NCBI GenBank assembly: GCA_044892525.1
Contig: JBJFYX010000158.1
Location: forward strand, 1 to 63,791
Reading direction: 5' to 3'
Length of the DNA stretch: 63,791 bases
Source of the DNA: Schmidtea polychroa
Taxonomy: Eukaryota
This document shows, in pieces, positions 14,031-59,217 of this stretch (positions are counted from its first letter, which is position 1; each line of letters opens with the position of its first letter). A program made the position numbers and the translations under genes. The notes under the pieces were generated by a model that did not search any database, had not been told where the DNA came from, and worked only from the letters and a program-made list of their open reading frames with translations.

Positions 14031-14537
14031 CGTAAGGGAAGATTGCTTTCTAAAAGCTTTAGAAAATAACTTCTATTTTACAAAGGAGAATACTTATTTG
14101 TCTAACAAATGTTGCGGGTACACTACTCGGATGACCCCTTTCTAGTGCAACTTTAGTCTAGAGGATGAATGCCACCTCGATTTCGCCCATCATTTATTTG
14201 GTCATCGCCGAGCGGGACCCGTACATAACTTACACTCCAACATAGCACCCGTGAATTGCTTCGCGTTGGAACTGTGCTATGCCGGCGAGACGCCAGTAAG
14301 CAGGTGAGCCAGCTCCTTCGGACTACTCCTTACTGAGGCCTCGACTTCCCAACCCTGACTGCCGATAGAAGGACTTACGTCTACTCATTCCGTCGCCCCA
14401 TCGCAATATTTCTAGCTGAGTTTACCAACTGACTAATGCTCCTCATAATTTTATGACTCTCAATACCATTTACCAATTTCAACTCAACTGTCTTAAGATG
14501 AACACAAAGAAAAAAAAACGTATGCAGACAAATATGG

Positions 14538-14543
14538 TTTATT
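14538..14543 (-). terminator. Candidate LTR polyadenylation signal AATAAA (also 35038-35043 and 55538-55543)
   Basis: AATAAA on the minus strand downstream of the LTR ORF and about 430 bp from the LTR 3' end; function inferred. Confidence 0.35.
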
Positions 14544-14677
14544 ATTAAGATTATCACACAAATATATCTAACACCTATACAATAAAGTTCACGACAACGG
14601 GAAAAGAGACAAGGTAAAATGTTATCAGACAATGTTCAGGTCAATTCAGAGAACGAAGACTTTTTACGGGGAAGTTC

Positions 14678-15427
14678 TCATTTCTCCCACTCCGAGTCTG
14701 CCAATAGATCTTCCAAATCGAAAAACTCAGAGGCGTTTTCCTCCCAGGTAACACCAGCGGCGGAGATGATTCGCCCTGAGATCACTGATGCTAAATCAAT
14801 TGCTGCAGGAGGGTTGATGACTTTGATTGGATGATCCGACGATTGCTGGTTCTGTTTGGCGGTTACGCGTTCCCGCTGTTTCTTTTTGCGTTCGGCTCTC
14901 GATAATTGCCGACGCTTTGGCTTCGATGCCGTTGGGTTGATCGGGGGTGCTGCGGAGGTGGATGCTATCGCAGGTAGCACTTTACTGGTTCCGGTAAAGA
15001 TGATTTCTGGCCCTTTAGGTGAGAGCTCGGTCTCTACGCACCCATGGCAGGACTTTCCGACTGGAGAAGAAGATCCGCCAGAGATATCATGATGCGCGGG
15101 GAAAAGATTACTGGCTTCATTAATTGGGATCTTCGCGATCTTCCTTGTAGTCGCGGCCTGGACGTATAATTTGTGCAGCGCCTCCGACTGCTCTTTTATC
15201 AGGCTCCTCTGCGCCCGACTCTCGGAAATCAACGCGTCTCTACAGTGCTCGCTTCGGTGCAGCTTCTTCTGAACCTCCTTCATCTGGGTGGGACTAAACC
15301 ATGTCCCCTCTAACTCATCTATCCTTCTTTTGTGTTTTCCGATTTGGGCCTGGAGCTCTTTGATAATTGAATTCTTGTCGGAGCAAGAAAAACAAGGTCG
15401 AAGAACGGACTTGGAATTTGGCAACAT
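14678..15427 (-). CDS. LTR-embedded ORF, 249 aa (coiled coil, basic NLS-like stretch, acidic C-terminus)
   Basis: GC-richer intact ORF preceded by a strong acceptor ttttcattttcttttttcacag (ends 15437, in frame). No recognised homologue. Confidence 0.55.
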   Translation of the reverse strand: MLPNSKSVLRPCFSCSDKNSIIKELQAQIGKHKRRIDELEGTWFSPTQMKEVQKKLHRSEHCRDALISESRAQRSLIKEQSEALHKLYVQAATTRKIAKIPINEASNLFPAHHDISGGSSSPVGKSCHGCVETELSPKGPEIIFTGTSKVLPAIASTSAAPPINPTASKPKRRQLSRAERKKKQRERVTAKQNQQSSDHPIKVINPPAAIDLASVISGRIISAAGVTWEENASEFFDLEDLLADSEWEK

Positions 15428-18400
15428 TTTGAGCGACTGTGAAAAAAGAAAATGAAAATAATTAAATCAGCGGGAGTGTCACCATCTGACTACATTCATA
15501 CTGTACTGATCATAGACAAAAATATGGGTTTACCAGTCAAGACAAGTTCTACTACGCGATGGATTCTCGTACCCTTTCGGGGCTTTGATTATAAGAAGAT
15601 AAATCGATCAAACCAGATTTCACACAAGGAAAAGGAAGATATTACTATTTGTGAGAGAAATCTAGGTCGATGAAAAGGATTATTTATTTAATCCGCTTGG
15701 AGTCATTATTTCACGTTTACCGAGAATCGATTTAAATTGTCGACTTCTCCCCCCGTACGAGTGCTTTTAATGAGTGTATCATATACTGGGGTCGAGTGAC
15801 TATCTATGGAAAAGGGGTCCATAATGCCTGTTGATTAGTTCCTACAGGATAAACGGAAGGTTATTTAAATTTTTAATTGTTTATTCATTCTCTTTAATTA
15901 CTCACATATATGTTTTACCTGGTTTACATAATATTTATTTAACAATATTCGATATTTATATTAATGATAACTATGTCAAAAAATGAGATAATTTCGGTGC
16001 CATTCATGCTAAGATAATACAGAGAGAATAATCATAATTATGATCGAGTTTATCATTAAAAATTAGTGTCTTTATAACAACTGAGCACGGTATCCGTGTG
16101 AGCTAGTAGTCGACCATACCCGCTGGGTAGATAAGGTAATGTCAGCCCAGTGATTGACTCTTAATCCGGAGCGGTGAAATCTGATAGCTGTCGGTAGTTT
16201 AATTGGCATGTTCGATCTAATTTTACATGAGTAGATGCGTGTGTGACTTTGCCTACTGTACTTGGCTACTAGGTACGTCTGCAACTGGTGACGCATGCAA
16301 GGTGCGCTTTCACACACCTAATTATACTACAAATGCAGGCGTTGAAGGTTTGCATGATGGCATTCTCTCAGAATTTTATCCACCGCGTAATCACTCACAA
16401 TTCTACGGCATATGGTGATGATTTACTAATTCTCGCCGGATTATTGGAAAAATTCTAATTATCTGGATTGCAAATGTTGGATATAGCTTGCTCCAAGGGT
16501 GGATTTTTCGTCTTCAATTCCTCAAGCCTAGTTTATCAATCTACTCTCTAAGTGCTGGAGGATTTTTTCCTATCTCTGCTGGATTGCCAACCTCATGTAA
16601 TACTGGAATTTTGTATTTAACAAGATTATCGGCTAACTGGAAGAAATATATTTTCTTGGTTCGAATTGGTTGCATTTTCCATTGTTAAATTATTTGATGC
16701 CAATAGTTTAGGTAATTATGATAATTAATTGTATGTAAATATTTTTATACAAATAAAAAAAATTAATTGAAGTAAATTATTTTATGTAATTCAAAATTTT
16801 ATTTGGAACAAACTCGTTTTATGAAGTTCTAACAATTATCTGTAATAAATTATTTTACGTAGTTCTACAATTTATCCGTAAACAGTCATTTTGAATAATT
16901 CCAATAATTATCTGAAGTAATCTACTTTGAGCTTCCTTGCAACTATGTCTTTAAGAGAACTTTTAGATGAACGGAATAATAGTTCAAAGGGTTTTAGGGT
17001 AACAATTGGTCGGAACAGATTCTGAGTGAAAGGTATGAACATCAAAGATATGTCACAGATAGCCTCATTAAGGTTTGAACAATTTTTGACGCACAACCTA
17101 TATTGATGATAGAGAAATTTTTAGGCTTAGCAAAAACGATATTTGAAGACGATAGTGTGACACCCTCAATCACTGCGCGAATACATCAAAATTCTCCGAT
17201 TCCTTTATTACATATCTTTGTTTTCAATCACTACATGACTATCAATTTTCTGCCACCATTTACCTATAGATTTTAGTCGCACCTTCAGCAATTGGACCCG
17301 TGAAGAAGCCCTCACATTTCGGCCCAATCTAGCTGCGTGATTGAAATACCCTATGTCCACCGGTGGAGCTCCCGGAGGCACCTCACACCATGACATAGAG
17401 TATCTCAACGCCACGTTTCTCGCAAAATTGAATAGTCTCCAATAATAATTCATAAAAATTAATTCATAAAAGATCAATAATTCTTAACGAGCAAATCATT
17501 TATTATCGAGCAAATTATTTAAATAAAGCATTCTAAAATCAAACGAAAAGAAAAACCATTTTTTCTTTTTAAATTAAAAATATTATTAAACTATACGCAT
17601 TACTTAAAAATTCAAAATAAGCAATCAAAAAATCCTTACCGAATGATTGATACAAGTATGGGCTGAGTCGAAAAGGGTACTATGTCGAATCAGTTAATGC
17701 TCGAATATCGTCTAGTTCTGTAAAAATCTCTTGAATCTTGGAATTGTCCTCGTGAGTTATCGTGCGTTAGTTGCTGGAGTTCTGTTCTGTCGTAGAATAG
17801 ATTTACCTATTGAGGTGGTTGATTAACAGTGATTGTTATGTTTTTAATGCCTGCTTATATATTAATTTTTTGTTTGCGCGGACCAATTAGAATTGAGTAC
17901 CGCTTAATTTTATTAATTTAATTTATTTTCCTTGTTTTTGAGTTATTTCTTCTTACTTTCTTTATTAAAATTATGTTTTTATTTATTTTTCTTAATTTTC
18001 TTATTATTTACTATATTTTACGTTGTTTTCCGCCATTCTATTGTCCTATTTTAATTTTTTCTCATCTTTATATTTTTTGTTTTAATTCCTATTTTCTAAT
18101 TATTGTTTTTCTTATGTTTTATTCTATTTTGTTTGTCAATTTATTTGTTTTTATTTTTTATTTTATTTTAGTTAAGTTTGCCCTAATTTCCCAACTACCC
18201 TTCGATTCAGCCCAACAAATCACTCGGGGACCCATCAAAATTGCGTCCCGCAATTGCATAGTTATCTTACTTCATGCATTCATAAAAAGGATATATCGAA
18301 ACAATTATACTACAATAATAAAAACAATTTTATTCTAAGATATAGGTCAAATCAAGACCAAGCAAGTATCACTTAAGGTGATAGTTTGTATATACAATAA

Positions 18401-18577: not shown

Positions 18578-19060
18578 TTAAGATTTGTCAGTGGCACTTC
18601 TTGAGAATTTTTCGTAAATCTTCATGAGTATTGGTAGACATAGGAGGAGGGTTTCTGCGATCACCACATATATGAGATAATGGGTGTCATTGATTTCGGG
18701 AGGTGGTTTTGGCTTTTCTACAAGATTTTCAAAATTCTCTTGTTGCATTTGTTGTTCTAACTGGTCGAATTGTTGGATTTGTTCGAGGATTTGTTTGTTT
18801 ATCATTTTACAAATGGGATTCTTTTTACACATTGTTTGGATGTTGTTGATGTGTGAACGGGTTGATTGAAGGGTTTGGATGATATGGATTTTTACTGTCA
18901 TAGGGTATGTGCATTGGCCGGATTCTCGTTTAGGTTCTTGATTTTGATTTCGGTAATCTCGCACGATTTTCGGTTGGGCGTTTACTTGTTTGTTCTCCGT
19001 CAGAATCATCAATACCGTCATTGTTATCATCATCTCGCCTCGCATGATACTATTATACAT
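18578..19060 (-). CDS. Cargo ORF, 160 aa, putative type-I membrane protein
   Basis: N-terminal hydrophobic MMITMTVLMILTE..VNA, three Cys, and TM-like YLIYVVIAETLLLCLPILM. Confidence 0.6.
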   Translation of the reverse strand: MYNSIMRGEMMITMTVLMILTENKQVNAQPKIVRDYRNQNQEPKRESGQCTYPMTVKIHIIQTLQSTRSHINNIQTMCKKNPICKMINKQILEQIQQFDQLEQQMQQENFENLVEKPKPPPEINDTHYLIYVVIAETLLLCLPILMKIYEKFSRSATDKS

Positions 19061-23248: not shown

Positions 23249-26200
23249 CTATATACGTGAGTTTGGAGGGCGCTGAGCGTTCCAGGCCTCCACCCACTGT
23301 TCTTGTTTGATATCACTTGGTCGTTTCACTCGATGTTGGAAATTTCTGATTCGGGTCATCTCTAGTTCTCCGCGATGTCGTTTATCTTTAATTATTTTTA
23401 TTGTTCCCCCTGTTATGATTAGGAAGGCCCCTGTTATTATTATCCCACTGATCCACATCATCTGCTTCACGCTTATATTCTCTGGTTTCTCCTTGTTTGT
23501 TAATGTTGATATCGCTTCTGTACCTTGCTCGTTTCCTCTTTTGCCATTTCCTTTCATCATTTCCCGTATTCTTGCTATTTCCTCGTTCATACCCTCCTTT
23601 GCCATCTTTTGTATTTTTTCCATCTCTTCCTCCGAAACATAGTTGTCCTGAGCTTCCTCACCGGTTTTCTTGTGCTTTCCTCCTTCGTTCTTTTCGTCGT
23701 GGTTTTTTCTTTTCTTTCCTCTTTTCCCCGGGTATCGTCGGCATTCTCTTTTTGATTCGTTCCTCCAGATACAAACCGTGTATTCTTTCGGCGGCTGCTG
23801 CTGCGTCACATATTGATGGCATCTCTCACCTGGTCCTAATCTTGAAATACAGACTTTGTGCTCTTTTCTAGGTTGGAGCTGCGTTATTACTACTTCACCA
23901 CCTTTTCCTAGGTGTACCTCTTTTCCTTTAACGTTCGTTATTCTCTTCCCGTCTCGATTTCGGTATGCTTCTTGTATTCTTACTTCTGTTATTGGTTCTG
24001 TGTCCTCATTTATCAGTACTAGTTTCTGATACGCTCTAGACATGCATCTTCCTAGTATGCACCTTTCCTTTAAGTCCCATTCTTCCTTTAAATCCCACTG
24101 CTGCTCTTGTGCTTGCTTTTTCTTTTCTTGTTTTAGTTCATCCTCTTTGCTATCTTGATTCTCCGCTTCTTTGGTTTCTTTTATCGTTCTCGTCCCTCCA
24201 TGAGCTGTTACTAACTCTATCATGGTAAGCATAATTATCATTAATATCATATTTGTCTCTATTTCTTTGTTAGTGAAAGGTAGGCATACCCTCTGTTTTC
24301 CATTATTCGGTTTTTCCTCCTCTTTGGTCTTGGTTCCCGGCCTGTTTCCCTCTCTTTTCGTATCCAAATCCTTGTTTTCCGGTTTATCCTCTTCCGGTTC
24401 TCTTTTCCCTTTATCCTCTTTCCGGCCTTTTCCATCATTGTCATCGTGTTTATCTCCCCCGCTGTCATTTAAAATGTCGTCCTCGACATTTATATCGTTC
24501 AATAATCTGCGATATGCTGTTAGCACTCTGTTTCTTGCTAATTTTGCTTCGAATTCAAACTCTTTTCTACCCGTTGCAGCATGTCTCTTTCTATTCCATT
24601 CTTTAACTAACTCTCTCAATTGCATACGACGATGTTTCCCAATTCGTTGTTGCTCGTTCTGATTTTGCGTGAATTTTAGGTCTTCTCTATTTAATACTAT
24701 TAAAATAATTTTAGGCGTCCCCCCCTTAGTTAGGGTATTCTTTACCATCGCATTTTCTCCGTTTTCGTAGAATTCGTTTACATTTATCGCATATTTATTA
24801 TTTTGTGGTACTCTCCAGGTTAATAATAATTTCATTGCTTCTAGATTTTTCCGTACCGTATTCCATTGAAACTGAGATGTGTTTTTGCACATATTTTCAA
24901 CTTCTTCTTTTGTCGCATTTTTGCAAATAAATCTGATCATTTCTAAGTTTGGCTGTATGGTTGCCCAGTCCAAGGTGGAATTTCCTTCATTGGACCTTTC
25001 GTCTAGTTTCGATCCTGCTTGATGTAGGATGTGGAGTGTTTTTGGGTGTATTTTCGTTATAGCTGCATACATCATGGCGGTTTCACCTTGTTCATTTTTC
25101 GTGTTGGTTTCCTCGCCCATCTCCCCAAGGATTCTCATGATCGTTATTGCTCTATTCTCTTTTGCAGCTAGTATTGCTTGTTGTAGAGGTGTTCTGGAAT
25201 CCTTTGTTACCATCGTAAATGCTCGAGGCAAGAAGGTTTTGATTTTCCCGATATCTAAACCCGTGGTTTGATCTCTTGCGTATGTGTGTACGGCTTTTAT
25301 TATTTTGGACAATATTATTTCGTCTGGCAGCTCTAGCATTTCCTCAAAGAACACTTCTTTTGCTTTGCGTATTATTGCCTCTTGATCTATACTCATTGAT
25401 TTGGTTTCGATGACGTTGTTTGTGACCGTTTGGTTCGTTGTTGACTTTGATTCCCTGGATTTCTCATACCTTATTTTCGTTTTCTTTCCGTTTGGATTAT
25501 TGATTCGTTCCTCTGCTGTAAGTATTTGGATAATATCCAGGTAATTCTCGCGGATGTTATTCATTGTGTCCATCATATATAACACACTTACCGTTTCCCA
25601 ATATTTATTTCGTACTTGGTTAGTAAATTGGAATAGTGATTTTTCGAATGTGTCGATTCGCTTTTTTGTTAACTGTTCATCTTTGTGATTTGTGAATTTT
25701 ATCCCTCGTTCTAGTAATTGATTCGGGATTTCGAATAAATGATGTCCTTTCATAGCTTCTCTCATCAGCGTGTTCTCTCCTCTCGTGAACGCTTCGTTTA
25801 CGTTGATCATATAATCGTTTTGAATTGGATTTCTCCATGTAATTAATATTCCGGTAATTGTCGTCAGTTTTTCTTTGATCGCTGTTAACAATCCATCATA
25901 CATGTTTCCGACTTCCCGATTGTCCTCATATGATAGTAGTTCCATCAATGACGTGAACGCCTCGGTACTTCTCCCTTCGATAGCATGATGTAGAGCGTTT
26001 TTCCGCTCGTGGTCTTGTGTAGTTATTTTCGATCCGGTATCGAGTAATGCGGTTATAATGTCTTTTGTTTTGCCTCTGTTTGCGGCTATCATTAATGGTG
26101 TGTAACCTTGGTTGTTTGTTTGTTCTGTTGATCGCTTGCAGTCGTGAAATGCTTCTATTGTTTCTAGTATTTGCTCGTTGTTACCTACTTTCATGAGTTT

Positions 26201-29200
26201 GTGTAATGGTGTGTCTCCGTAATGATCTGTTATTGTAAATAATATTGGCCATTGGCTTTTGACTACTCGCAATAATGGGTGTGTCCTTTCTCTATTTGCA
26301 TAGTTCTCGATCATCGTCAATAATCCTCCTAATATTTCGAAATCTAATCGATCTTTCGCCCATCCAGGTATTTTAATTTTTACCTCTTTTACAATCTTTT
26401 CCGCTTCTGATGGTTGGATACCCAATCGTCCGGTGATCGGTTCTGCGAGTTGTTGCATCATGTTCATTCGGTAGGTTTGCGAACGTGTGGTTAATGTACG
26501 GCCTTCTGGTTGACTTGTGGCTGTTTTTGGAATTGATTTGCATCGTGCCACGTTTACGTATATTGGCCTGGTAAATGGGTTATTTACCAATTTCACTCTT
26601 ACATTGGTTTCGCCTACGAATAAGATCTCATATGGTCCTTTTCCGTTGCGTTGTAACTTTTTTGTGGTTCCTGGAATTAATTCCGGGGTTTCTATCATTA
26701 CCCAATCACCTGTTTGAAACGTATGTTGCTTCACGTTTTTCTTTCGATCGTGTAAATCTTTATAACTTTCCTGGTAGAACTTGATATTTAATCCCGCAGT
26801 TTCCCAAATCTCTTGCATTCTTTCCTTGAATTTCGTAACATAATCATCGATCTCCATATACTGCGATATCGGTGGTTGGTATTCCAGGTCCATTGGCATA
26901 TTACACTCTCTTCCGTACATTAATTTGAATGGGCTCATTTTCGTTGATGCGTGAATCGACATTCTGTATGCCATAAGACATAGGTTTATATATTCGTCCC
27001 AATCTCGTTGGTGACGGTCGACGTAGTTTGATAACATTTGTATAAGTGTTCCATTAAATCTTTCCGTCATCCCATTGGTTTGAGGGTGGTATGGAGATGT
27101 TCTTAGTTTTGCTATTTTGAAGTAATTTGTTACTTCGCTCATTATCTCACTCATAAAATTAGTTCCCTGATCGGTTAATATCTGTTTTGGTGTTCCATAT
27201 CGGCAACATATCTCTTCTACCAAAATTTTTGCGATTGTTTTAGCTTTTTGGTCTGGCATCGCGAATGCTTCTGGGAATTTCGTAAGAAAGTCTGTGATCA
27301 CTAGAATGTAAACGTTTCCTTTATCTGACTCTGGTAGTGGACCAACTACGTCCATGGATATCATTGTCATTGGTTCTATTGGTACTGGCATTGGCGTTAA
27401 AGGTGCTTTCCATTTCGATCCAGTATTCTTCCTGGTTGCACAAGTTAAACAATTTTTTACCCATTCGGTTACATCTTCAGTTAACGTAGGCCAAAAATAT
27501 TTCTGTTTCATTCTTGCTAACGTCTTTTTCGATGACATATGTCCTCCCAATCTCCCATCGTGGTATTGCGTTAGTAACTCTTTTCGTCGGTTTTCCGGTA
27601 TACACATTAATCGTTTTTCCCCATCCATTATCAGCAACCAATCTTTCTCTATAATATATCGGTGTCGGTGTTTATCCATATGTTCCTTTAATTTTTGGTC
27701 TTTCGCATATCCATCTGTCTTTCCGGTTTTTACATAATCGATAATTTGTTTTAATTCCGCGTCCTCTTGTTGGTCCTTTCGCAGTTGACAGAAATCCAAA
27801 TCTTCCGCTACTATTAAGCATATGCGTTGCATTTCTGAATCCACCAAATCTGGGAAAATAAATCTTGACATACAATCGGCGTTGGCATTTGCTCTTCCCG
27901 CTTTGAATTTTATAAATGGGGAGTATTCTTGTAATTGCATGGCCCATCTCATCAGTCTATTGGACGCTTCTTTATGTTGCCCTAACCACACTAATGGTTG
28001 ATGATCTGTGGTTATACATATCTCATGTCCCCATAGTAAGTATCGGAAGTGTTTGATAGCTTGTATTATAGCCAATGCTTCCCGTTCTGTTACCGAATAG
28101 TTCTTTTCGTGCTTTTTGAATGTTCGACTGTAATACCCGATTACTCTCTCTTTTCCTTCATCGTCTAATTGTCCCAGAATCGCGCCTGCCGCGTACCCGC
28201 TTGCATCCGTTGCTAATAGAAATGGCTTCTTAAAATCTGGGTGTACGAGGATAGGTGCTTCGATTAGTTTATCTCTCAGCGTTTCAAACGCCTCTTGTTG
28301 TTCCCTTCCCCAAATGAACGAAATGTCCTTCTTTACCAATTCCTGGATTGGTTTTGCAATTCCTGCATAATTTTTGATAAATTTGCGATAGTATCCGCAT
28401 AATCCCAGAAATTCCTGAACTTGGGTGACAGTTTTCGGTGCTGGACATGTTTTTATTTTCTCAATGTTTCTTGGATCTGGCTCCTTTCCTTTAGCTGACA
28501 CTATGTGTCCTAAAAACGTGACTTTTTCCTTTGCCCAATCGCATTTTGATGGTTTGAGTTTGAGTTTCCACTGTCTTAATCTAATAAATACGTTTCGGAT
28601 ATCTTCCAGATGTTGTTCAAATGTCGCTGAATAGATTAGTAAATCATCAATATATACCATACATTGTTTGATTCCATGGGTGACAAAGTTCATACACCGT
28701 TGAAATGATGCTGGTGCGTTGGTTAGTCCGAATGGCATTTTCCTGAATTGATATAGATCTCGTCCCAACGTGAAAGCTGTTTTCTCTTTGTCCTCATCTT
28801 TGACTTTAATCTGCCAGTATCCACTTTTTAGATCTAAAGAAGTAAAATATGCTGCCCCTTGCAACATCAATAACATCTCATTGATGTCCGGCAATGGATA
28901 GGTATCTCTCTTGGTTACTGCGTTTAACTTCCGATAATCGATACAGAATCGTTGGGTGCCATCTTTCTTTTTTACCATGACCACTGGGAATTGCCAGGGT
29001 GAGCAACTTGGTTCGATTACTTTTGCGTCTAGCATCTTTTGTACTTCTGTTTCGGCTATTTCTTTCTGCATTTCTGCTAGCTTGTATGGTCTCAATGCAA
29101 TTGGGGTTTCGTCTATGAGTGGTATTGCATGTAAGGTAACATCACATGTACCCAAGTCTAAATCTGAGATGGCGAATATATCTTTATATTCTACCAACAA

Positions 29201-29227
29201 TCGGTGCAATTTTTTTCTTTTCATCAT
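23249..29227 (-). CDS. pol: Pol polyprotein: RT-RNaseH-integrase + two ankyrin blocks + signal/ectodomain/TM module
   Basis: RT (FCIDYRKLN, LDLKSGYWQ, YIDD); RH (TDASG, EREALA, TDHQPL); IN (HHCC, DVVGP, TDQG, TERFN, GPY); ANK (GDTPLH, GYTPLMIAA, KNALHHA, RTPLQQA, GETAMMYA); two hydrophobic segments. Confidence 0.95.
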   Translation of the reverse strand: MMKRKKLHRLLVEYKDIFAISDLDLGTCDVTLHAIPLIDETPIALRPYKLAEMQKEIAETEVQKMLDAKVIEPSCSPWQFPVVMVKKKDGTQRFCIDYRKLNAVTKRDTYPLPDINEMLLMLQGAAYFTSLDLKSGYWQIKVKDEDKEKTAFTLGRDLYQFRKMPFGLTNAPASFQRCMNFVTHGIKQCMVYIDDLLIYSATFEQHLEDIRNVFIRLRQWKLKLKPSKCDWAKEKVTFLGHIVSAKGKEPDPRNIEKIKTCPAPKTVTQVQEFLGLCGYYRKFIKNYAGIAKPIQELVKKDISFIWGREQQEAFETLRDKLIEAPILVHPDFKKPFLLATDASGYAAGAILGQLDDEGKERVIGYYSRTFKKHEKNYSVTEREALAIIQAIKHFRYLLWGHEICITTDHQPLVWLGQHKEASNRLMRWAMQLQEYSPFIKFKAGRANANADCMSRFIFPDLVDSEMQRICLIVAEDLDFCQLRKDQQEDAELKQIIDYVKTGKTDGYAKDQKLKEHMDKHRHRYIIEKDWLLIMDGEKRLMCIPENRRKELLTQYHDGRLGGHMSSKKTLARMKQKYFWPTLTEDVTEWVKNCLTCATRKNTGSKWKAPLTPMPVPIEPMTMISMDVVGPLPESDKGNVYILVITDFLTKFPEAFAMPDQKAKTIAKILVEEICCRYGTPKQILTDQGTNFMSEIMSEVTNYFKIAKLRTSPYHPQTNGMTERFNGTLIQMLSNYVDRHQRDWDEYINLCLMAYRMSIHASTKMSPFKLMYGRECNMPMDLEYQPPISQYMEIDDYVTKFKERMQEIWETAGLNIKFYQESYKDLHDRKKNVKQHTFQTGDWVMIETPELIPGTTKKLQRNGKGPYEILFVGETNVRVKLVNNPFTRPIYVNVARCKSIPKTATSQPEGRTLTTRSQTYRMNMMQQLAEPITGRLGIQPSEAEKIVKEVKIKIPGWAKDRLDFEILGGLLTMIENYANRERTHPLLRVVKSQWPILFTITDHYGDTPLHKLMKVGNNEQILETIEAFHDCKRSTEQTNNQGYTPLMIAANRGKTKDIITALLDTGSKITTQDHERKNALHHAIEGRSTEAFTSLMELLSYEDNREVGNMYDGLLTAIKEKLTTITGILITWRNPIQNDYMINVNEAFTRGENTLMREAMKGHHLFEIPNQLLERGIKFTNHKDEQLTKKRIDTFEKSLFQFTNQVRNKYWETVSVLYMMDTMNNIRENYLDIIQILTAEERINNPNGKKTKIRYEKSRESKSTTNQTVTNNVIETKSMSIDQEAIIRKAKEVFFEEMLELPDEIILSKIIKAVHTYARDQTTGLDIGKIKTFLPRAFTMVTKDSRTPLQQAILAAKENRAITIMRILGEMGEETNTKNEQGETAMMYAAITKIHPKTLHILHQAGSKLDERSNEGNSTLDWATIQPNLEMIRFICKNATKEEVENMCKNTSQFQWNTVRKNLEAMKLLLTWRVPQNNKYAINVNEFYENGENAMVKNTLTKGGTPKIILIVLNREDLKFTQNQNEQQRIGKHRRMQLRELVKEWNRKRHAATGRKEFEFEAKLARNRVLTAYRRLLNDINVEDDILNDSGGDKHDDNDGKGRKEDKGKREPEEDKPENKDLDTKREGNRPGTKTKEEEKPNNGKQRVCLPFTNKEIETNMILMIIMLTMIELVTAHGGTRTIKETKEAENQDSKEDELKQEKKKQAQEQQWDLKEEWDLKERCILGRCMSRAYQKLVLINEDTEPITEVRIQEAYRNRDGKRITNVKGKEVHLGKGGEVVITQLQPRKEHKVCISRLGPGERCHQYVTQQQPPKEYTVCIWRNESKRECRRYPGKRGKKRKNHDEKNEGGKHKKTGEEAQDNYVSEEEMEKIQKMAKEGMNEEIARIREMMKGNGKRGNEQGTEAISTLTNKEKPENISVKQMMWISGIIITGAFLIITGGTIKIIKDKRHRGELEMTRIRNFQHRVKRPSDIKQEQWVEAWNAQRPPNSRI

Positions 29228-29537
29228 TCGTCAACAACATACTATCTATTGTCCATAATTCATCATCTTTGATCATCTCGTTGGTCACTTTCGGTAATTC
29301 TATGTCCATCATTGGGGTCAATCTTCCCAATTTTTCGTTCTCATAAATGATTTTGTCTTCCTCTTCGAAATTCGTGATGTTGAGCGGTATCACTCCTTCT
29401 TGGTTTATTGTGATTATTTCTCTTGCGAGTGGTAATTCTCGTCGCTTTTCAAATGACTTGCTTGGTTCAAAGATAACTTCTCCTTCCATACCCGTATCCA
29501 ATCGAAAAGTTCGTCGGTGACTGTATTTTTTATCCAC
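29184..29537 (-). CDS. Gag-Pol linker segment in the -1 frame (pre-RT domain)
   Basis: EGEVIFEP..LAREII..IPLNITN..ENEKLGRL resembles the segment between protease and RT in gypsy Pol and leads naturally into LLTNDEKKK/LHRLLVEYKDIF. Confidence 0.65.
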   Translation of the reverse strand: MDKKYSHRRTFRLDTGMEGEVIFEPSKSFEKRRELPLAREIITINQEGVIPLNITNFEEEDKIIYENEKLGRLTPMMDIELPKVTNEMIKDDELWTIDSMLLTNDEKKKIAPIVGRI

Positions 29538-31576
29538 ATTCTTTCAAGTCCTCTACTCGTTCCGATTTTTATTACATACCGCGTGGTATCTGCCTGCTTC
29601 ATTTTTTCCATATACTTTTTTATAATTGATTTTTCCTCGTTTGGTATTAAATCTTTCTCGTTTCTTTCCAATTTCATCACTTTTTGCACGAATCGCCTGA
29701 ATGATATTACGTCGATGAACTCTTGGTTTCTCACTACCGCCGGGAGTATTTCGGCTACCTGTTTTATCGCTTCCTCCCTTGCTTTTCTCAACTTTATTTC
29801 GATATCCTCGTCTTCACTTCCACTTGTTATCTCGCTTTCGCTTTCTTCCTCTTTGATTTCCCCTTTTGGAGGTTCGCTTATTTCGTTTAGCTGTAGTATT
29901 TCTCCACCCAAACTACTTACATAATCTTCTTCTTCGTCTGACGATGCTACATCTTTTGTCCTTTTCATCATATTGATTTGCAAATTTCTCATCCTTGGTA
30001 CTCTCTTTAGTTTCTTTCTTTCGAATATCGTTGTTTCTTCTGATTCTAATTCTTGTAGCATTTGGTGGTTTAGTTGACTGGTTTGTTCCTTGCTCTTGTT
30101 ATTTTCATCTTCTGTCTCGGCTTTCGCTTTATTATGTTCTTTTTCGATTTTATCTTTTATCTTTTTCCAGAATATTTTCTGAATTCTCTGGTTTCCTTTT
30201 AAAATCGTGGTTGAATTCTCTGTTTTCATTTCCGTTGTTGTTTCTGTTACCTTTTCTGGTTCAGTCATGGGTACTACCCTTGGGTTTTTCCCGTAATTGT
30301 AGCAATACTGGCTTTTCATGTCTTTTACTAACTTCATCATATTAATTCGCAATGGTTGTTCTTGTCGTTGTTGGTTGCGTTCTTGTTTTATCCTCTCTTC
30401 CTCGGCCTGTAGTCTTTGCCATTCTTGTACATGTTGATGCACTTCATAATTGTTGAGATTTTCGGTACTCCTCATCATACGTATATTCTGGGTTTGTTGT
30501 GGTGCTGATTCCGGTCTCGGTCTCATCATTTGTTGCATCATCTGTTTCATCTGCGAGATTTCCTGCATAACGTTCATTTGTTTTCCTTCGCTAGGGTTAC
30601 TTTGTCGTTGCGGATTCGCCATATAATTATTATTTCGCTGTGGTGGTCGTTGTTGTTGGCCCCTTTCTCGGCAATCTCTGGAGATGTGACCTGGCTGACC
30701 ACAGTTAAAACAACCTCTCAATTGGCATACATTTTCGGTATGTCCACGCCGTCCGCAACGATTACAATTTGAATTTCTATAGCAATCTCTGTCCCAGTGT
30801 CCTGGTTTACCGCATGTTCGACACTGCTTGTTATCGTTCATATTTCGTCGATTATTAAAATTGTTCTCATTATTCGGGTTGTTACGATTACCATTATTCC
30901 CATTTGATCGTCCTTGTGGTGGTTTGAAAATTTGGTGCGCTCCTGGTATAAATTGATTCATTTTCGGTTCTTGATTGTTGTTATCTCCGTTATCCGCTTT
31001 CGCTATTGCTGTCATTATCCTTCCCTCCTCTTGCATAATATTCATTTGAGCTGGAAGGTGGAGCTCACATCTTGTAGCCCAATCTATGGCTTCCTCTAAT
31101 GTTTTGCACATTTGACAACCTACTGAGGCTCTTACTTCTTCTCGGCGTAATCCCTCTATGAAATAACCGATCAGATTTTCTTCGGGTAATTTTCCATTCA
31201 TTGCTTTCTTCGCTAATCTCCGCAATTCACTGGCATATAATGTTATCGATTCGTTTGCTCTTTGTTTCCTATTTGCTAGTTCGCCCAACGCCTGGTTGAT
31301 TGGCTTACTGGCTCCGAAGGTTTTCTTCAGGAATGTTTTGATATCTTCCCACTTTTCCAATTTCGTATCTCTCTCTTTAGCTTCTAAATATACTTCTAAT
31401 GCGCTATCGCACAAAAACAACGGCATCCTTTTACTAATTGCTTCGGGTGTCCATCCACACACAGTGATATAAACTTCAAAATTAGTTATGAACGGTGCTA
31501 GCTTGTTTGCATTTCCGTTGAACGGTTCTCCTCTGAACTTCTCTTTATACTCGTCGGTTTTTACGACATTCGTCAT
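29414..31576 (-). CDS. gag: Gag (capsid + three CCHC zinc knuckles + long Q/E-rich extension)
   Basis: Capsid motif RKQRANESITLYASELRRLAKKA; knuckles CRTCGKPGHWDRDC, CNRCGRRGHTENVC, CFNCGQPGHISRDC. Confidence 0.93.
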   Translation of the reverse strand: MTNVVKTDEYKEKFRGEPFNGNANKLAPFITNFEVYITVCGWTPEAISKRMPLFLCDSALEVYLEAKERDTKLEKWEDIKTFLKKTFGASKPINQALGELANRKQRANESITLYASELRRLAKKAMNGKLPEENLIGYFIEGLRREEVRASVGCQMCKTLEEAIDWATRCELHLPAQMNIMQEEGRIMTAIAKADNGDNNNQEPKMNQFIPGAHQIFKPPQGRSNGNNGNRNNPNNENNFNNRRNMNDNKQCRTCGKPGHWDRDCYRNSNCNRCGRRGHTENVCQLRGCFNCGQPGHISRDCRERGQQQRPPQRNNNYMANPQRQSNPSEGKQMNVMQEISQMKQMMQQMMRPRPESAPQQTQNIRMMRSTENLNNYEVHQHVQEWQRLQAEEERIKQERNQQRQEQPLRINMMKLVKDMKSQYCYNYGKNPRVVPMTEPEKVTETTTEMKTENSTTILKGNQRIQKIFWKKIKDKIEKEHNKAKAETEDENNKSKEQTSQLNHQMLQELESEETTIFERKKLKRVPRMRNLQINMMKRTKDVASSDEEEDYVSSLGGEILQLNEISEPPKGEIKEEESESEITSGSEDEDIEIKLRKAREEAIKQVAEILPAVVRNQEFIDVISFRRFVQKVMKLERNEKDLIPNEEKSIIKKYMEKMKQADTTRYVIKIGTSRGLERMWIKNTVTDELFDWIRVWKEKLSLNQASHLKSDENYHSQEK

Positions 31577-32940
31577 GATTGGTGTTCTAGATTCGTCTGT
31601 TTCTTTTAAATTGTCTAACGATGTGACTAAACTTTGGGCTGATAATTCCTCGGTTGACGTTGCTAAACTATTAGTGATGTCGGACAGACTTTCTCTGCTT
31701 CGAGATCGACTAGGGGTGTATCCGAGATTTTCTTGGTCAAATATAGGTACTTGATTGGTTCTTCTTGATCCTTGCGATATTCCTCTTTGCTGTTTAATAG
31801 ATCGTCCTCTTTTGAGTTGTTGTAATTCGTCTCCTGAAAATAATACGTCTCCTGGCTTACTTGAAGATCTAAGATTGGGTTTATCCGTGATTCCTTTCTT
31901 ACGCTTCTTGGTAATTAGCGGCTATTGAATTGGACGAGTTCGGTTCTGATTGTGTTTCCTTCGATAAATATTCTGTATGGATCTGCTACTGTGATTCTGA
32001 GGAGATTCACTAGTCCTTGACAGATGGCTGCTAATATTATGAGGTTGAATATATCGATGATTCGTTCGAAGTTGGAGATATCGCTATCTGTATCTTCTTC
32101 CGTTCTGGAGTCTTCCGGTTGCTGTGTCTCTCGGTGCGGGTTCTGAATGAATTTATTCTTGGTCGATTGTCGATTTCTTCGAATTCCTTTTGTGCAGGTT
32201 CTGGATTGTCTTGGTTGACTGGATTGGTTTGATATCTAAAATGAAAAAATGATCTCGTGTTGCATTTGCTTACACGACTTCATCATTCTTTCAACAACGT
32301 TCGAACACAGACACCTTTTAGGTTCTGTTTATGCTTCCCCTATTTTTTATGCAATTACTTCCGCGGGTTATAATCTCCCATCAGCCCGAATTTTTCGTCG
32401 ATTTTAAATTATCTATATGGGGTAGTAACAATTATCTATCAAGTCGTAATAATTATCTATTCGTTATCAATTATAGTAAAAATAGGTCGTTGTCGGTCTC
32501 TGCTTATTACCCCCCTTCGTTTTCCTATTCCTTTTGCGCTGTTGTCGCTATTTTACTTTTCATATTTACTATTATTACGCTCGGTTCTACTCTGGAACCA
32601 ATAAAATGCATTTTCCCGGTTTAACCAAAAAAAATATTCCGTAGAGTTTCTCTACCTTACTGGGATCCCTTTAATTAGTTGGTTACTTTCCTCTTTACTC
32701 ATTATCATCGTTTCGCCTATTCTTTATTTTCCATTATCTCTTTAATTCGTTTCCTTCTTCCCTTTCCTTTTTCATTATAATCTTATTATCTTTTCCACGA
32801 GCTCGTTTATTTCCTCTCTAAACTCAAATTTTCGTAATTACATTCAATTTGTTTCTAGCTAGCTTTAATATTCCCTTTCTCTATTAATTCAGATATTAGC
32901 TCATTGTAGCTTAACTGCTATCTCTCGCTTTTCTAGGCCT

Positions 32941-33797: not shown

Positions 33798-34334
33798 TTA
33801 TTCACCATAATAAACCATATGAGTTTCTTTTATTTCATGCCTACATATCGTACATCGTTTTAAATCGTTCACACATTCTTCGCAGTGACTGAGGTGTCCA
33901 CGCGGCAAAAACAGTACGCGAATAGGACGAAGTTTACAAGCACGACAAGTTCGTAGTAGAGTCAGTTTTTCTTGTATTTTCCGCTCGATTGTATCTGATA
34001 TGGTATTTAGTGGATCTTTTATACGTTGATAATCAAGATTTAATGCTGGGTGGTTCAATCTCTCTTGATACCATTGATACACGGTTTCCGGGTTTACCTT
34101 CCCCTCTGGGTGACTTAGTCCTGTGGCTAATAACATGTGGTTGGGGACGGCTGGTGTTTGCCCGATTGCTTGAAGTAGTATGATGTTAATTCTTTCTCTT
34201 TTTTGTGTCAGCGTTTTAAGGGAGTCATTCTCGATGTTTATGAAGTTGATTAGTTGTTGTATCTGGTCCACGAATTCCGTCATGTCTATTAAAAAAAATG
34301 TTTCAGTAATATATGACTTCGTTTCGTCAAACAT
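33798..34334 (-). CDS. 178-aa ORF with C-terminal IAP/MDM2-type RING (one Cys replaced by Arg)
   Basis: CRACKLRPIRVLFLPRGHLSHCEECVNDLKRCTICRHEI at the extreme C-terminus, as in IAPs. No BIR domain seen. Confidence 0.75.
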   Translation of the reverse strand: MFDETKSYITETFFLIDMTEFVDQIQQLINFINIENDSLKTLTQKRERINIILLQAIGQTPAVPNHMLLATGLSHPEGKVNPETVYQWYQERLNHPALNLDYQRIKDPLNTISDTIERKIQEKLTLLRTCRACKLRPIRVLFLPRGHLSHCEECVNDLKRCTICRHEIKETHMVYYGE

Positions 34335-34584
34335 TCTCTTTTCTAACTCGTTATCGTTATTTTACTTTTATCTTATTTCTCCATCATTAAATTTGCTTTA
34401 TTTATATTCTTAATTTTATTATTTTCTATTCGTGATTTATAATAAGATTCAATAAGCATTAGTCAATTTGCACTCGCTAACCCATTGAAATCACTGATCC
34501 CCGGTGAGTTCACTCTATTCGACAGAAATTCACTCAATAACATCCTTATCCAGTTTACACTAGTCAATGGAAATTTCAATCTAA

Positions 34585-34609: not shown

Positions 34610-37600
34610 TGTTGCGGGTACACTACTCGGATGACCCCTTTCTAGTGCAACTTTAGTCTAGAGGATGAATGCCACCTCGATTTCGCCCATCATTTATTTG
34701 GTCATCGCCGAGCGGGACCCGTACATAACTTACACTCCAACATAGCACCCGTGAATTGCTTCGCGTTGGAACTGTGCTATGCCGGCGAGACGCCAGTAAG
34801 CAGGTGAGCCAGCTCCTTCGGACTACTCCTTACTGAGGCCTCGACTTCCCAACCCTGACTGCCGATAGAAGGACTTACGTCTACTCATTCCGTCGCCCCA
34901 TCGCAATATTTCTAGCTGAGTTTACCAACTGACTAATGCTCCTCATAATTTTATGACTCTCAATACCATTTACCAATTTCAACTCAACTGTCTTAAGATG
35001 AACACAAAGAAAAAAAAACGTATGCAGACAAATATGGTTTATTATTAAGATTATCACACAAATATATCTAACACCTATACAATAAAGTTCACGACAACGG
35101 GAAAAGAGACAAGGTAAAATGTTATCAGACAATGTTCAGGTCAATTCAGAGAACGAAGACTTTTTACGGGGAAGTTCTCATTTCTCCCACTCCGAGTCTG
35201 CCAATAGATCTTCCAAATCGAAAAACTCAGAGGCGTTTTCCTCCCAGGTAACACCAGCGGCGGAGATGATTCGCCCTGAGATCACTGATGCTAAATCAAT
35301 TGCTGCAGGAGGGTTGATGACTTTGATTGGATGATCCGACGATTGCTGGTTCTGTTTGGCGGTTACGCGTTCCCGCTGTTTCTTTTTGCGTTCGGCTCTC
35401 GATAATTGCCGACGCTTTGGCTTCGATGCCGTTGGGTTGATCGGGGGTGCTGCGGAGGTGGATGCTATCGCAGGTAGCACTTTACTGGTTCCGGTAAAGA
35501 TGATTTCTGGCCCTTTAGGTGAGAGCTCGGTCTCTACGCACCCATGGCAGGACTTTCCGACTGGAGAAGAAGATCCGCCAGAGATATCATGATGCGCGGG
35601 GAAAAGATTACTGGCTTCATTAATTGGGATCTTCGCGATCTTCCTTGTAGTCGCGGCCTGGACGTATAATTTGTGCAGCGCCTCCGACTGCTCTTTTATC
35701 AGGCTCCTCTGCGCCCGACTCTCGGAAATCAACGCGTCTCTACAGTGCTCGCTTCGGTGCAGCTTCTTCTGAACCTCCTTCATCTGGGTGGGACTAAACC
35801 ATGTCCCCTCTAACTCATCTATCCTTCTTTTGTGTTTTCCGATTTGGGCCTGGAGCTCTTTGATAATTGAATTCTTGTCGGAGCAAGAAAAACAAGGTCG
35901 AAGAACGGACTTGGAATTTGGCAACATTTTGAGCGACTGTGAAAAAAGAAAATGAAAATAATTAAATCAGCGGGAGTGTCACCATCTGACTACATTCATA
36001 CTGTACTGATCATAGACAAAAATATGGGTTTACCAGTCAAGACAAGTTCTACTACGCGATGGATTCTCGTACCCTTTCGGGGCTTTGATTATAAGAAGAT
36101 AAATCGATCAAACCAGATTTCACACAAGGAAAAGGAAGATATTACTATTTGTGAGAGAAATCTAGGTCGATGAAAAGGATTATTTATTTAATCCGCTTGG
36201 AGTCATTATTTCACGTTTACCGAGAATCGATTTAAATTGTCGACTTCTCCCCCCGTACGAGTGCTTTTAATGAGTGTATCATATACTGGGGTCGAGTGAC
36301 TATCTATGGAAAAGGGGTCCATAATGCCTGTTGATTAGTTCCTACAGGATAAACGGAAGGTTATTTAAATTTTTAATTGTTTATTCATTCTCTTTAATTA
36401 CTCACATATATGTTTTACCTGGTTTACATAATATTTATTTAACAATATTCGATATTTATATTAATGATAACTATGTCAAAAAATGAGATAATTTCGGTGC
36501 CATTCATGCTAAGATAATACAGAGAGAATAATCATAATTATGATCGAGTTTATCATTAAAAATTAGTGTCTTTATAACAACTGAGCACGGTATCCGTGTG
36601 AGCTAGTAGTCGACCATACCCGCTGGGTAGATAAGGTAATGTCAGCCCAGTGATTGACTCTTAATCCGGAGCGGTGAAATCTGATAGCTGTCGGTAGTTT
36701 AATTGGCATGTTCGATCTAATTTTACATGAGTAGATGCGTGTGTGACTTTGCCTACTGTACTTGGCTACTAGGTACGTCTGCAACTGGTGACGCATGCAA
36801 GGTGCGCTTTCACACACCTAATTATACTACAAATGCAGGCGTTGAAGGTTTGCATGATGGCATTCTCTCAGAATTTTATCCACCGCGTAATCACTCACAA
36901 TTCTACGGCATATGGTGATGATTTACTAATTCTCGCCGGATTATTGGAAAAATTCTAATTATCTGGATTGCAAATGTTGGATATAGCTTGCTCCAAGGGT
37001 GGATTTTTCGTCTTCAATTCCTCAAGCCTAGTTTATCAATCTACTCTCTAAGTGCTGGAGGATTTTTTCCTATCTCTGCTGGATTGCCAACCTCATGTAA
37101 TACTGGAATTTTGTATTTAACAAGATTATCGGCTAACTGGAAGAAATATATTTTCTTGGTTCGAATTGGTTGCATTTTCCATTGTTAAATTATTTGATGC
37201 CAATAGTTTAGGTAATTATGATAATTAATTGTATGTAAATATTTTTATACAAATAAAAAAAATTAATTGAAGTAAATTATTTTATGTAATTCAAAATTTT
37301 ATTTGGAACAAACTCGTTTTATGAAGTTCTAACAATTATCTGTAATAAATTATTTTACGTAGTTCTACAATTTATCCGTAAACAGTCATTTTGAATAATT
37401 CCAATAATTATCTGAAGTAATCTACTTTGAGCTTCCTTGCAACTATGTCTTTAAGAGAACTTTTAGATGAACGGAATAATAGTTCAAAGGGTTTTAGGGT
37501 AACAATTGGTCGGAACAGATTCTGAGTGAAAGGTATGAACATCAAAGATATGTCACAGATAGCCTCATTAAGGTTTGAACAATTTTTGACGCACAACCTA

Positions 37601-38717
37601 TATTGATGATAGAGAAATTTTTAGGCTTAGCAAAAACGATATTTGAAGACGATAGTGTGACACCCTCAATCACTGCGCGAATACATCAAAATTCTCCGAT
37701 TCCTTTATTACATATCTTTGTTTTCAATCACTACATGACTATCAATTTTCTGCCACCATTTACCTATAGATTTTAGTCGCACCTTCAGCAATTGGACCCG
37801 TGAAGAAGCCCTCACATTTCGGCCCAATCTAGCTGCGTGATTGAAATACCCTATGTCCACCGGTGGAGCTCCCGGAGGCACCTCACACCATGACATAGAG
37901 TATCTCAACGCCACGTTTCTCGCAAAATTGAATAGTCTCCAATAATAATTCATAAAAATTAATTCATAAAAGATCAATAATTCTTAACGAGCAAATCATT
38001 TATTATCGAGCAAATTATTTAAATAAAGCATTCTAAAATCAAACGAAAAGAAAAACCATTTTTTCTTTTTAAATTAAAAATATTATTAAACTATACGCAT
38101 TACTTAAAAATTCAAAATAAGCAATCAAAAAATCCTTACCGAATGATTGATACAAGTATGGGCTGAGTCGAAAAGGGTACTATGTCGAATCAGTTAATGC
38201 TCGAATATCGTCTAGTTCTGTAAAAATCTCTTGAATCTTGGAATTGTCCTCGTGAGTTATCGTGCGTTAGTTGCTGGAGTTCTGTTCTGTCGTAGAATAG
38301 ATTTACCTATTGAGGTGGTTGATTAACAGTGATTGTTATGTTTTTAATGCCTGCTTATATATTAATTTTTTGTTTGCGCGGACCAATTAGAATTGAGTAC
38401 CGCTTAATTTTATTAATTTAATTTATTTTCCTTGTTTTTGAGTTATTTCTTCTTACTTTCTTTATTAAAATTATGTTTTTATTTATTTTTCTTAATTTTC
38501 TTATTATTTACTATATTTTACGTTGTTTTCCGCCATTCTATTGTCCTATTTTAATTTTTTCTCATCTTTATATTTTTTGTTTTAATTCCTATTTTCTAAT
38601 TATTGTTTTTCTTATGTTTTATTCTATTTTGTTTGTCAATTTATTTGTTTTTATTTTTTATTTTATTTTAGTTAAGTTTGCCCTAATTTCCCAACTACCC
38701 TTCGATTCAGCCCAACA
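34610..38717 (-). repeat. LTR 2 (shared central LTR)
   Basis: Flanked by internal-region sequence on both sides. Confidence 0.97.
35178..35927 (-). CDS. LTR-embedded 249-aa ORF, copy 2
   Basis: Identical translation to 14678-15427. Confidence 0.55.
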   Translation of the reverse strand: MLPNSKSVLRPCFSCSDKNSIIKELQAQIGKHKRRIDELEGTWFSPTQMKEVQKKLHRSEHCRDALISESRAQRSLIKEQSEALHKLYVQAATTRKIAKIPINEASNLFPAHHDISGGSSSPVGKSCHGCVETELSPKGPEIIFTGTSKVLPAIASTSAAPPINPTASKPKRRQLSRAERKKKQRERVTAKQNQQSSDHPIKVINPPAAIDLASVISGRIISAAGVTWEENASEFFDLEDLLADSEWEK

Positions 38718-58100: not shown

Positions 58101-59217
58101 TATTGATGATAGAGAAATTTTTAGGCTTAGCAAAAACGATATTTGAAGACGATAGTGTGACACCCTCAATCACTGCGCGAATACATCAAAATTCTCCGAT
58201 TCCTTTATTACATATCTTTGTTTTCAATCACTACATGACTATCAATTTTCTGCCACCATTTACCTATAGATTTTAGTCGCACCTTCAGCAATTGGACCCG
58301 TGAAGAAGCCCTCACATTTCGGCCCAATCTAGCTGCGTGATTGAAATACCCTATGTCCACCGGTGGAGCTCCCGGAGGCACCTCACACCATGACATAGAG
58401 TATCTCAACGCCACGTTTCTCGCAAAATTGAATAGTCTCCAATAATAATTCATAAAAATTAATTCATAAAAGATCAATAATTCTTAACGAGCAAATCATT
58501 TATTATCGAGCAAATTATTTAAATAAAGCATTCTAAAATCAAACGAAAAGAAAAACCATTTTTTCTTTTTAAATTAAAAATATTATTAAACTATACGCAT
58601 TACTTAAAAATTCAAAATAAGCAATCAAAAAATCCTTACCGAATGATTGATACAAGTATGGGCTGAGTCGAAAAGGGTACTATGTCGAATCAGTTAATGC
58701 TCGAATATCGTCTAGTTCTGTAAAAATCTCTTGAATCTTGGAATTGTCCTCGTGAGTTATCGTGCGTTAGTTGCTGGAGTTCTGTTCTGTCGTAGAATAG
58801 ATTTACCTATTGAGGTGGTTGATTAACAGTGATTGTTATGTTTTTAATGCCTGCTTATATATTAATTTTTTGTTTGCGCGGACCAATTAGAATTGAGTAC
58901 CGCTTAATTTTATTAATTTAATTTATTTTCCTTGTTTTTGAGTTATTTCTTCTTACTTTCTTTATTAAAATTATGTTTTTATTTATTTTTCTTAATTTTC
59001 TTATTATTTACTATATTTTACGTTGTTTTCCGCCATTCTATTGTCCTATTTTAATTTTTTCTCATCTTTATATTTTTTGTTTTAATTCCTATTTTCTAAT
59101 TATTGTTTTTCTTATGTTTTATTCTATTTTGTTTGTCAATTTATTTGTTTTTATTTTTTATTTTATTTTAGTTAAGTTTGCCCTAATTTCCCAACTACCC
59201 TTCGATTCAGCCCAACA
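55110..59217 (-). repeat. LTR 3 (5' LTR)
   Basis: Ends cccaaca at 59217, followed by TSD caaa and unique sequence. Differs from LTR1/LTR2 at 57385 (t vs g). Confidence 0.97.
55678..56427 (-). CDS. LTR-embedded 249-aa ORF, copy 3
   Basis: Identical translation to 14678-15427. Confidence 0.55.
   Translation of the reverse strand: MLPNSKSVLRPCFSCSDKNSIIKELQAQIGKHKRRIDELEGTWFSPTQMKEVQKKLHRSEHCRDALISESRAQRSLIKEQSEALHKLYVQAATTRKIAKIPINEASNLFPAHHDISGGSSSPVGKSCHGCVETELSPKGPEIIFTGTSKVLPAIASTSAAPPINPTASKPKRRQLSRAERKKKQRERVTAKQNQQSSDHPIKVINPPAAIDLASVISGRIISAAGVTWEENASEFFDLEDLLADSEWEK

Follow-up and report, generated by a model that had tools for sequence, protein, structure and literature searches.

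The reading frame behind integrase

The window analysed here is a 63,791-nucleotide stretch of Schmidtea polychroa DNA (assembly GCA_044892525.1, contig JBJFYX010000158.1, positions 1 to 63,791 of the forward strand) that carries a Burro-type giant gypsy retrotransposon. A minus-strand open reading frame (ORF) at 23249-29230, 1993 amino acids (aa) from stop to stop, encodes reverse transcriptase (RT), RNase H, and integrase (IN). Its GPY motif lies at aa 865 (26638), and the frame then stays open for about 1,070 aa past integrase. Two homologous ankyrin (ANK) units come first in this extension, followed by a signal-like segment, a Cys-containing beta ectodomain, a transmembrane (TM) helix, and a tail. 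The parts of the ORF are listed in order of translation. Changes are those common to at least two of 40 sampled copies, from which the ratio of amino-acid to silent polymorphism (pN/pS) was taken.

26531..29230 (-), RT, RNase H, and integrase, not in frame with what lies upstream in the window copy; RT-RNase H 6 amino-acid and 169 silent changes, pN/pS 0.01; integrase 7 and 185, 0.01
26456..26470 (-), RMNMM, candidate element-protease site at the integrase/ANK border, a pattern picked by eye
25655..26401 (-), ankyrin unit 1, some three repeats enclosed by helical flanks; 26 and 96, 0.07
24470..25366 (-), ankyrin unit 2 with a C-terminal segment common with the single unit of family E; 37 and 120, 0.08
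24266..24469 (-), charged low-complexity linker under the weakest constraint; 21 and 12, 0.40
24203..24265 (-), predicted internal signal peptide MILMIIMLTMIELVTA, from hydropathy and (-3,-1) sites; 5 and 7, 0.17
23729..24076 (-), ectodomain core, a predicted beta-sandwich with a repeated Cys hairpin and six Cys; 8 and 44, 0.05
23471..23728 (-), charged stalk holding one of two N-glycosylation sequons, Thr/Ser-rich in relatives; 14 and 28, 0.11
23390..23464 (-), predicted TM helix, flanked by basic residues toward the tail; 0 and 10, 0
23249..23389 (-), predicted cytoplasmic tail (some 46 aa), closed by a TAG stop; 8 and 7, 0.31

A preliminary description of this DNA, made from the letters alone, had the ORF running past integrase into duplicated ankyrin blocks and a membrane protein, and our analysis bears out that layout. 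The extension matches Pfam Ank_2 above the cut-off (E 5.8e-17), and 353 PDB sequences match a profile built from four ANK units, the best 60 of the 353 being ankyrin-repeat proteins. Blocks 1 and 2 align with 25% identity over 226 aa (E 7e-15). Because a sister family, family E, has a single unit, we read the two in the window as a duplication. The proposed homology of the blocks holds, but the duplicated unit is longer than was claimed, spanning about 26401-25655 and 25366-24640. The motifs quoted earlier sit at the positions given for them (25849, 24829, 24250, 23884, 23806, and 23464).

By hydropathy, the 1993 aa contain only two hydrophobic segments (aa 1656-1680 and 1919-1948), at the places where a signal and a TM helix had been proposed. 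Hydropathy, (-3,-1) sites, and charge together fit a predicted type I membrane topology. The signal segment of family A, the family of the window copy, begins with Met, and its tail ends in -NSRI. The ectodomain had been credited with two strands resembling fibronectin type III (FN3). Its beta structure stands, but the prediction gives one beta-sandwich and a repeated VCI-x-C hairpin, and FN3 is unconfirmed for the window copy.

Conservation in copies and relatives

The genome was searched with ANK unit 1, and 144 of 1,000 candidates were scored. A frame of 4,732 aa is present in 59 of the 144, and 63 have frames of at least 4,700 aa. The last 343 aa hold an internal stop in one of 118 scored matches. 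The 40 copies sampled for selection comprise 27 with frames of at least 4,700 aa, the twin of the window copy, and 12 with shorter frames; they were ranked by ANK unit 1 similarity, which biases them for that unit and not for the ectodomain. None of the 40 has a stop between integrase and aa 1240, so that no common stop behind integrase speaks against the initial proposal. Stops or frameshifts within the extension occur in 11 of the 12 shorter-frame copies, nearly all at differing places; the remaining 28 are free of them. Purifying selection acts on the extension, and the element is recently active.

The window copy itself is damaged upstream. A deletion of about 5.5 kb, with its junction at 29493-29500, has removed the ubiquitin-like, BCL2-like, env, and protease parts of other copies, and a frameshift near 29210 has put RT-RNase H-integrase out of frame. 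The 1993-aa ORF is therefore the cut-off end of the 4,732-aa polyprotein, and the copy is non-autonomous. In a natural long copy (L001), the order is Gag, ubiquitin-like and BCL2-like parts, a signal, PF24664, its TM segment, protease, and a Pol of the window type. PF24664, a Monjiviricetes/gB-type class III fusion glycoprotein, lies between gag and protease with an E-value of 1.6e-42. The ubiquitin-like part is below cut-off (E 0.035), and the BCL2-like motif was seen by eye; profile scans gave no Bcl-2 match.

Env and BIR family searches found four further families (B, C, D, and E) in the genome. Family E is 82% identical to family A over RT-IN and has a polyprotein of 4,791 aa; in its extension a single ANK unit and an acidic linker precede the signal, which leads into three Cys-hairpin beta modules, a TM segment, and a tail. 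Families B, C, and D, 51% identical to the window family over RT-IN, pass from integrase directly to a signal, a 310-335-aa beta ectodomain, a TM segment, and a tail, without ankyrins. An env-protease profile drew five polyproteins of 2,855-4,029 aa from a public collection, two of the five being close kin; the one tested is 49% identical over RT-IN. All five end in signal, ectodomain, TM segment, and tail, and none has an Ank family on record. The signal-ectodomain-TM module thus follows integrase in all five families (A-E) and in five of five long database relatives, with ankyrins in only two families; it is therefore older than the ankyrins and varies less. Despite the common layout, divergence among the families has left the ectodomains almost past recognition. 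Across ten modules, we counted (-3,-1) sites in ten of ten, 2-11 N-glycosylation sequons, and at least as many K/R residues after the TM segment as before it, with the best hydrophobic windows chosen by construction of the script. The C-termini of L006, L018, L017, P0002, and P0004 read -ETRL, -ETWV, -ETFV, -TSWV, and -ATFV, which we take to resemble PDZ-binding motifs.

Two further observations concern these relatives. Four of the five database polyproteins (P0001, P0002, P0003, and P0005) carry a second aspartic-protease-like domain (DTG/DSG) between integrase and signal, where the Burro families carry ankyrin units. Families C and D have an accessory ORF of 486-496 aa after the polyprotein (L009:6768-8225 (-) and L017:1991-3478) without a Pfam match over cut-off; its FMDAEY motif is presumably exonuclease-like.

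An FN3 fold is supported by model and profile comparison for families B, C, D, and the database relatives. The family C model, with a predicted local distance difference test score (pLDDT) of 52.8, is all beta, and its best match is a tandem FN3 (Z 8.5, root-mean-square deviation (rmsd) 5.4, 164 residues aligned). A single domain compared with FN3 gives Z 7.8 and rmsd 2.1 over 77 aligned residues, and FN3 proteins make up most of the 50 matches listed for this family. A profile of 12 hand-cut modules reaches the FN3 of neogenin at E 7e-5, with more FN3 chains below it. Single members of families B, C, and D and the database relatives gave no match to Pfam fn3, nor did the family A ectodomain, and PDB sequence searches were blank for the family A core and for the B/C/D alignment. 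The model of the window core (pLDDT 58.5) is a six-strand sandwich with one end poorly placed. Its fold searches returned generic beta-sandwiches only, with no FN3 among 50 matches and nothing at E<=0.001 in PDB or BFVD. The core is weakly similar to module 3 of family E (E 0.003, z 4.3-4.7), and module 2 of family E likewise weakly resembles the first module of B and of C (z 3.1-4.2). FN3 ancestry for the window copy is at most plausible. A 79.8% profile match was discarded as circular, since one row stood in both alignments and the match was gone without it.

Wider searches gave no relative for window aa 1451-1993 among 1.84 billion representatives, none for the family E module among 4,490 candidates, and no usable Atlas match for the family A module; none of these is proof of novelty. 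Separately, contigs of runs X1, X6, and X7 diverge from the reference at the same place, 23826, into a Cys-hairpin variant, which suggests a variant hairpin of a diverged subfamily and not a splice.

A candidate second surface protein

The preliminary description had suggested that the surface protein could be a non-canonical envelope or else a receptor mimic, of which the second may hold. As a fusogen, the module does not qualify: a full class III fusion protein already lies upstream in long copies, and the module has no similarity to it and no match to any Pfam env family. The envelope idea is wrong as to the fusogen, yet it points to a conserved, predicted second surface protein; the extension itself is real and selected. 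We propose, at a probability of about one half, that the module is a second surface glycoprotein beside the fusogen, serving attachment or cell contact and released by signal peptidase. This is favoured because all long-frame relatives examined, the compact ankyrin-free ones among them, have the module together with env. More tentatively, the gB-type GAG-ENV-POL gypsy elements could be two-glycoprotein retroviruses at large. A clade-wide FN3/beta-sandwich receptor-binding protein behind integrase, cut from the same polyprotein, would give attachment and tropism, and Burro would have inserted one or two ANK units before it. The window copy itself is incapable of such a scheme, its env and protease being gone.

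How these parts, the C-terminal third of a single giant polyprotein, might leave it can be sketched. The ankyrin units would likely be freed by the element protease, and the predicted type I membrane protein would likely be released by host signal peptidase. The four hydrophobic segments of a whole copy (signal 1, env TM, signal 2, and last TM) would alternate across the membrane, which would place env and the second ectodomain on the lumenal side and keep Gag, protease, RT, integrase, and ANK cytosolic. Flavivirus and alphavirus polyproteins, with alternating membrane segments, offer an analogy. The data themselves establish the frame, its domains, the duplication, conservation, selection, and where env lies; we infer topology, cleavage, surface display, and attachment role alike. 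Release from the polyprotein, as first suggested, appears plausible from the (-3,-1) signal sites and the protease-site-like motif at the integrase/ANK border. All 40 of 40 copies have an RMNMM-type motif at that border; Gag and the junction of RNase H with integrase carry it again, and the stretch between the two ANK units has none. The motif is likely a protease cut site. Because the pattern was picked by eye from the same sequences, its enrichment in Gag is to some extent circular; the window Pol taken by itself shows no enrichment (2 hits, 42 of 300 shuffles), nor does family B. The freed ANK units would most likely be cytosolic protein-binding cargo beside the TRAF, IAP, and BCL2-like cargo. 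A Rel-homology search for an NF-kB target of the ankyrins found nothing, and its controls were also silent.

Several points weigh against this proposal of an attachment glycoprotein. Every relative came to light through env, which builds in the co-occurrence with it, and the signal and cleavage calls are heuristic. The family A stalk is charged and not mucin-like, and the tail is without the relatives' -ETxV end. The best fold match of the window core (Z 7.8) is to unrelated beta-sandwiches, and its score against the relatives' profile was reached by 89 of 500 shuffles. The A/E ectodomains are not established as homologues of those in B/C/D and so may have been captured separately. Other class III fusogens, rhabdovirus G and baculovirus GP64, carry out binding and fusion alone. 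The many host-modulating cargos (TRAF, IAP-RING, and BCL2-like) fit a host-directed role equally well.

Such a role is the alternative that survives best, although we regard it as rather unlikely. The module would be a host-cell surface modulator (receptor decoy, adhesion, or superinfection exclusion), never in particles and part of a signalling toolkit with TRAF, IAP, BCL2-like, and ANK. Cargos of the TRAF, RING/BIR, and BCL2-like kinds do occur in the same elements, FN3 folds resemble cell receptors, and the relatives' ends -ETWV, -ETFV, -TSWV, and -ATFV would presumably suit PDZ binding. Passages of PMC6431247 also list cargos of this kind, and one in PMC13465017, citing another paper, reports Burro1 IAP as protective of planarian stem cells. 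Against this, the module lies in the same polyprotein as env and is kept in compact relatives without ANK, and thus travels with core gag-env-pol and not with the variable cargo.

Improbable, to our mind, is a segment serving mainly to keep Pol at the budding membrane, as a tether or assembly signal, with an ectodomain that has no binding role. Signal 2 directly after integrase in families B, C, and D and a TM segment as the most constrained part would suit it, but the ectodomain core has a pN/pS of 0.05 with conserved Cys, and one to three folded beta domains are kept across lineages. We consider it quite improbable that the membrane protein, instead of being cleaved from the polyprotein, is made from a separate RNA, spliced or internally initiated, that begins at the signal-segment Met. 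That Met exists in family A, and the downstream accessory ORFs must presumably use some such route. However, the signals of families B, C, D, and E are in frame with Pol, mostly without a leading Met, and all long-frame relatives examined retain the in-frame fusion. Contigs of three possibly-RNA runs touch the module and contain no splice joint at the signal segment; such contigs cannot show expression.

That the module itself is the envelope, as a non-canonical fusogen, is very improbable. It has signal, ectodomain, and TM segment, and we take a position behind pol to be the usual place of gypsy env; against this stand the upstream fusion protein and the lack of similarity to F, gB/class III, or gypsy env proteins, and the ectodomain of about 247 aa is largely charged and lacks both another hydrophobic segment and a furin-type site. 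That the extension is an assembly artefact, or captured DNA read through neutrally, is hardly credible: the tandem described below may be an artefact or an allele, but the extension is in more than 100 independent copies with a strong silent excess, and its layout is kept in distant relatives.

The element and known systems

The element has the features of a Ty3/gypsy long terminal repeat (LTR) retrotransposon, namely LTRs with TG...CA ends, a target duplication, and gag followed by RT-RNase H-integrase. In the window it forms a 20,500-base repeat of two units; its three LTRs, each about 4.1 kb long, are identical save for one base at most, and CAAA, the 4-bp target duplication, flanks the whole tandem on both sides. 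After the middle LTR comes TGGGGGCTCAGCCGGGA, a primer-binding-site-like sequence that we take to be tRNA-Pro-like. Its remaining features are:

14110..18217 (-), 3' LTR, about 4.1 kb, TG...CA ends
18578..19060 (-), small accessory ORF, signal-like at its start and hydrophobic in a C-terminal segment
21255..22691 (-), TRAF-like accessory ORF: RING, zinc fingers, coiled coil, and MATH
29414..31921 (-), gag, truncated by the deletion, with Retrotrans_gag and CCHC knuckles
33798..34361 (-), IAP-type RING accessory ORF upstream of gag, without a BIR match
34610..38717 (-), middle LTR, common to both tandem units
43749..46970 (-), second post-integrase extension, identical, in the other tandem unit
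55110..59217 (-), 5' LTR, 1 mismatch against the 3' LTR in 4,109 bases

On contig C3 (G000:C3:89.90-89.94 Mb, L074-L076), identical flanks enclose one unit of the deleted element, whereas the window has two that are 99.99% alike. The tandem is therefore either an allele from LTR recombination or an assembly product.

Of the accessory ORFs, the small one has a counterpart of the same build at L022:4475-5497, and both are possibly a third membrane protein. The RING ORF in the window has R at one expected zinc-ligand position (LPRGHL), unlike family E, which has a complete BIR-RING ORF. A 74-base tandem repeat lies between the RING ORF and gag at 32867-33297, and L004 has more copies of it. Elsewhere in the window, an inverted repeat pair of 593 bases, 99% complementary (980-1571 and 7193-7785), encloses 5.6 kb and is probably a separate DNA transposon.

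Planarian Burro/GYPSM1, as passages of PMC6431247 describe it, exceeds 30 kb and encodes a 4,873-aa polyprotein with ankyrin, MATH/TRAF, BIR, BCL2-like, and SUMO-like parts; its env is in frame between gag and pol (PMC6431247, describing Jurka 2007 and Grohme 2018). Our element agrees in size (about 30 kb with multi-kb LTRs of about 4 kb, counting 24.6 kb in the window plus the deleted 5.5 kb), CCHC Gag, and the order protease, RT, RNase H, integrase; the ubiquitin-like and BCL2-like parts of its long copies are weak or by-eye candidates for their Burro/GYPSM1 counterparts. Env again lies in frame between gag and protease (PF24664, then RVP, in L001). We counted the single polyproteins of 4,732 aa here and 4,791 aa in family E as agreeing with the roughly 4,900-5,100 aa of Burro/GYPSM1. 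Ankyrin repeats and TRAF/MATH and IAP-type accessory genes are shared, with BIR in family E only. The window element differs in having two ANK units, in MATH being confined to a separate ORF, in a RING ORF without a BIR match, and in the loss of env and protease from the window copy. A separate MATH ORF is also reported for a Dugesia tigrina element in a passage of PMC6431247, and one in PMC8532177 reports Burro1 as expressed in planarian tissue and studied by RNA interference.

Element type, ankyrins, and env position have thus been published, as passages of PMC6431247 and PMC13524379 attest. The signal-ectodomain-TM module after integrase looks new: section 7 of PMC6431247 and the relevant passages of PMC13524379 make no mention of it, and Grohme 2018, Jurka 2007, Lee et al. 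2026 (Dev Cell), or supplements may describe it. The ankyrin part alone is ordinary for Burro. Polydnavirus vankyrins and poxvirus ANK proteins are short ankyrin stacks found with apoptosis and ubiquitin modulators; the ANK units of the window differ from them in being fused in frame to integrase.

Closer to the proposed role are the GAG-ENV-POL errantiviruses of the HSV/gB kind (HSV, herpes simplex virus), described in passages of PMC13524379 from Platyhelminthes, Nematoda, and Bryozoa. They share with our element a Ty3/gypsy Pol, a class III glycoprotein before pol, and many young intact copies (PMC13524379). Only chromodomains are discussed there after integrase, and the words 'fibronectin' and 'ankyrin' are absent from the main text. 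How gB-type errantiviruses enter cells is unexplained in the same source, because herpes gB needs gD, gH, and gL (PMC13524379).

To explain entry without herpes-like partners, a second surface protein, conserved behind integrase, offers a concrete candidate. If the proposal is true, the polyprotein of these retroelements would have four membrane segments and undergo processing of the RNA-virus kind. Herpesviruses pair the fusogen gB with gD/gH/gL, and paramyxoviruses pair F with an attachment protein. These viruses are not retroelements, they encode the partners in separate genes and not in one polyprotein, and we found no sequence or fold similarity to them. As a working analogy for the window element, they supply the arrangement itself, a fusogen accompanied by a separate type I surface protein.

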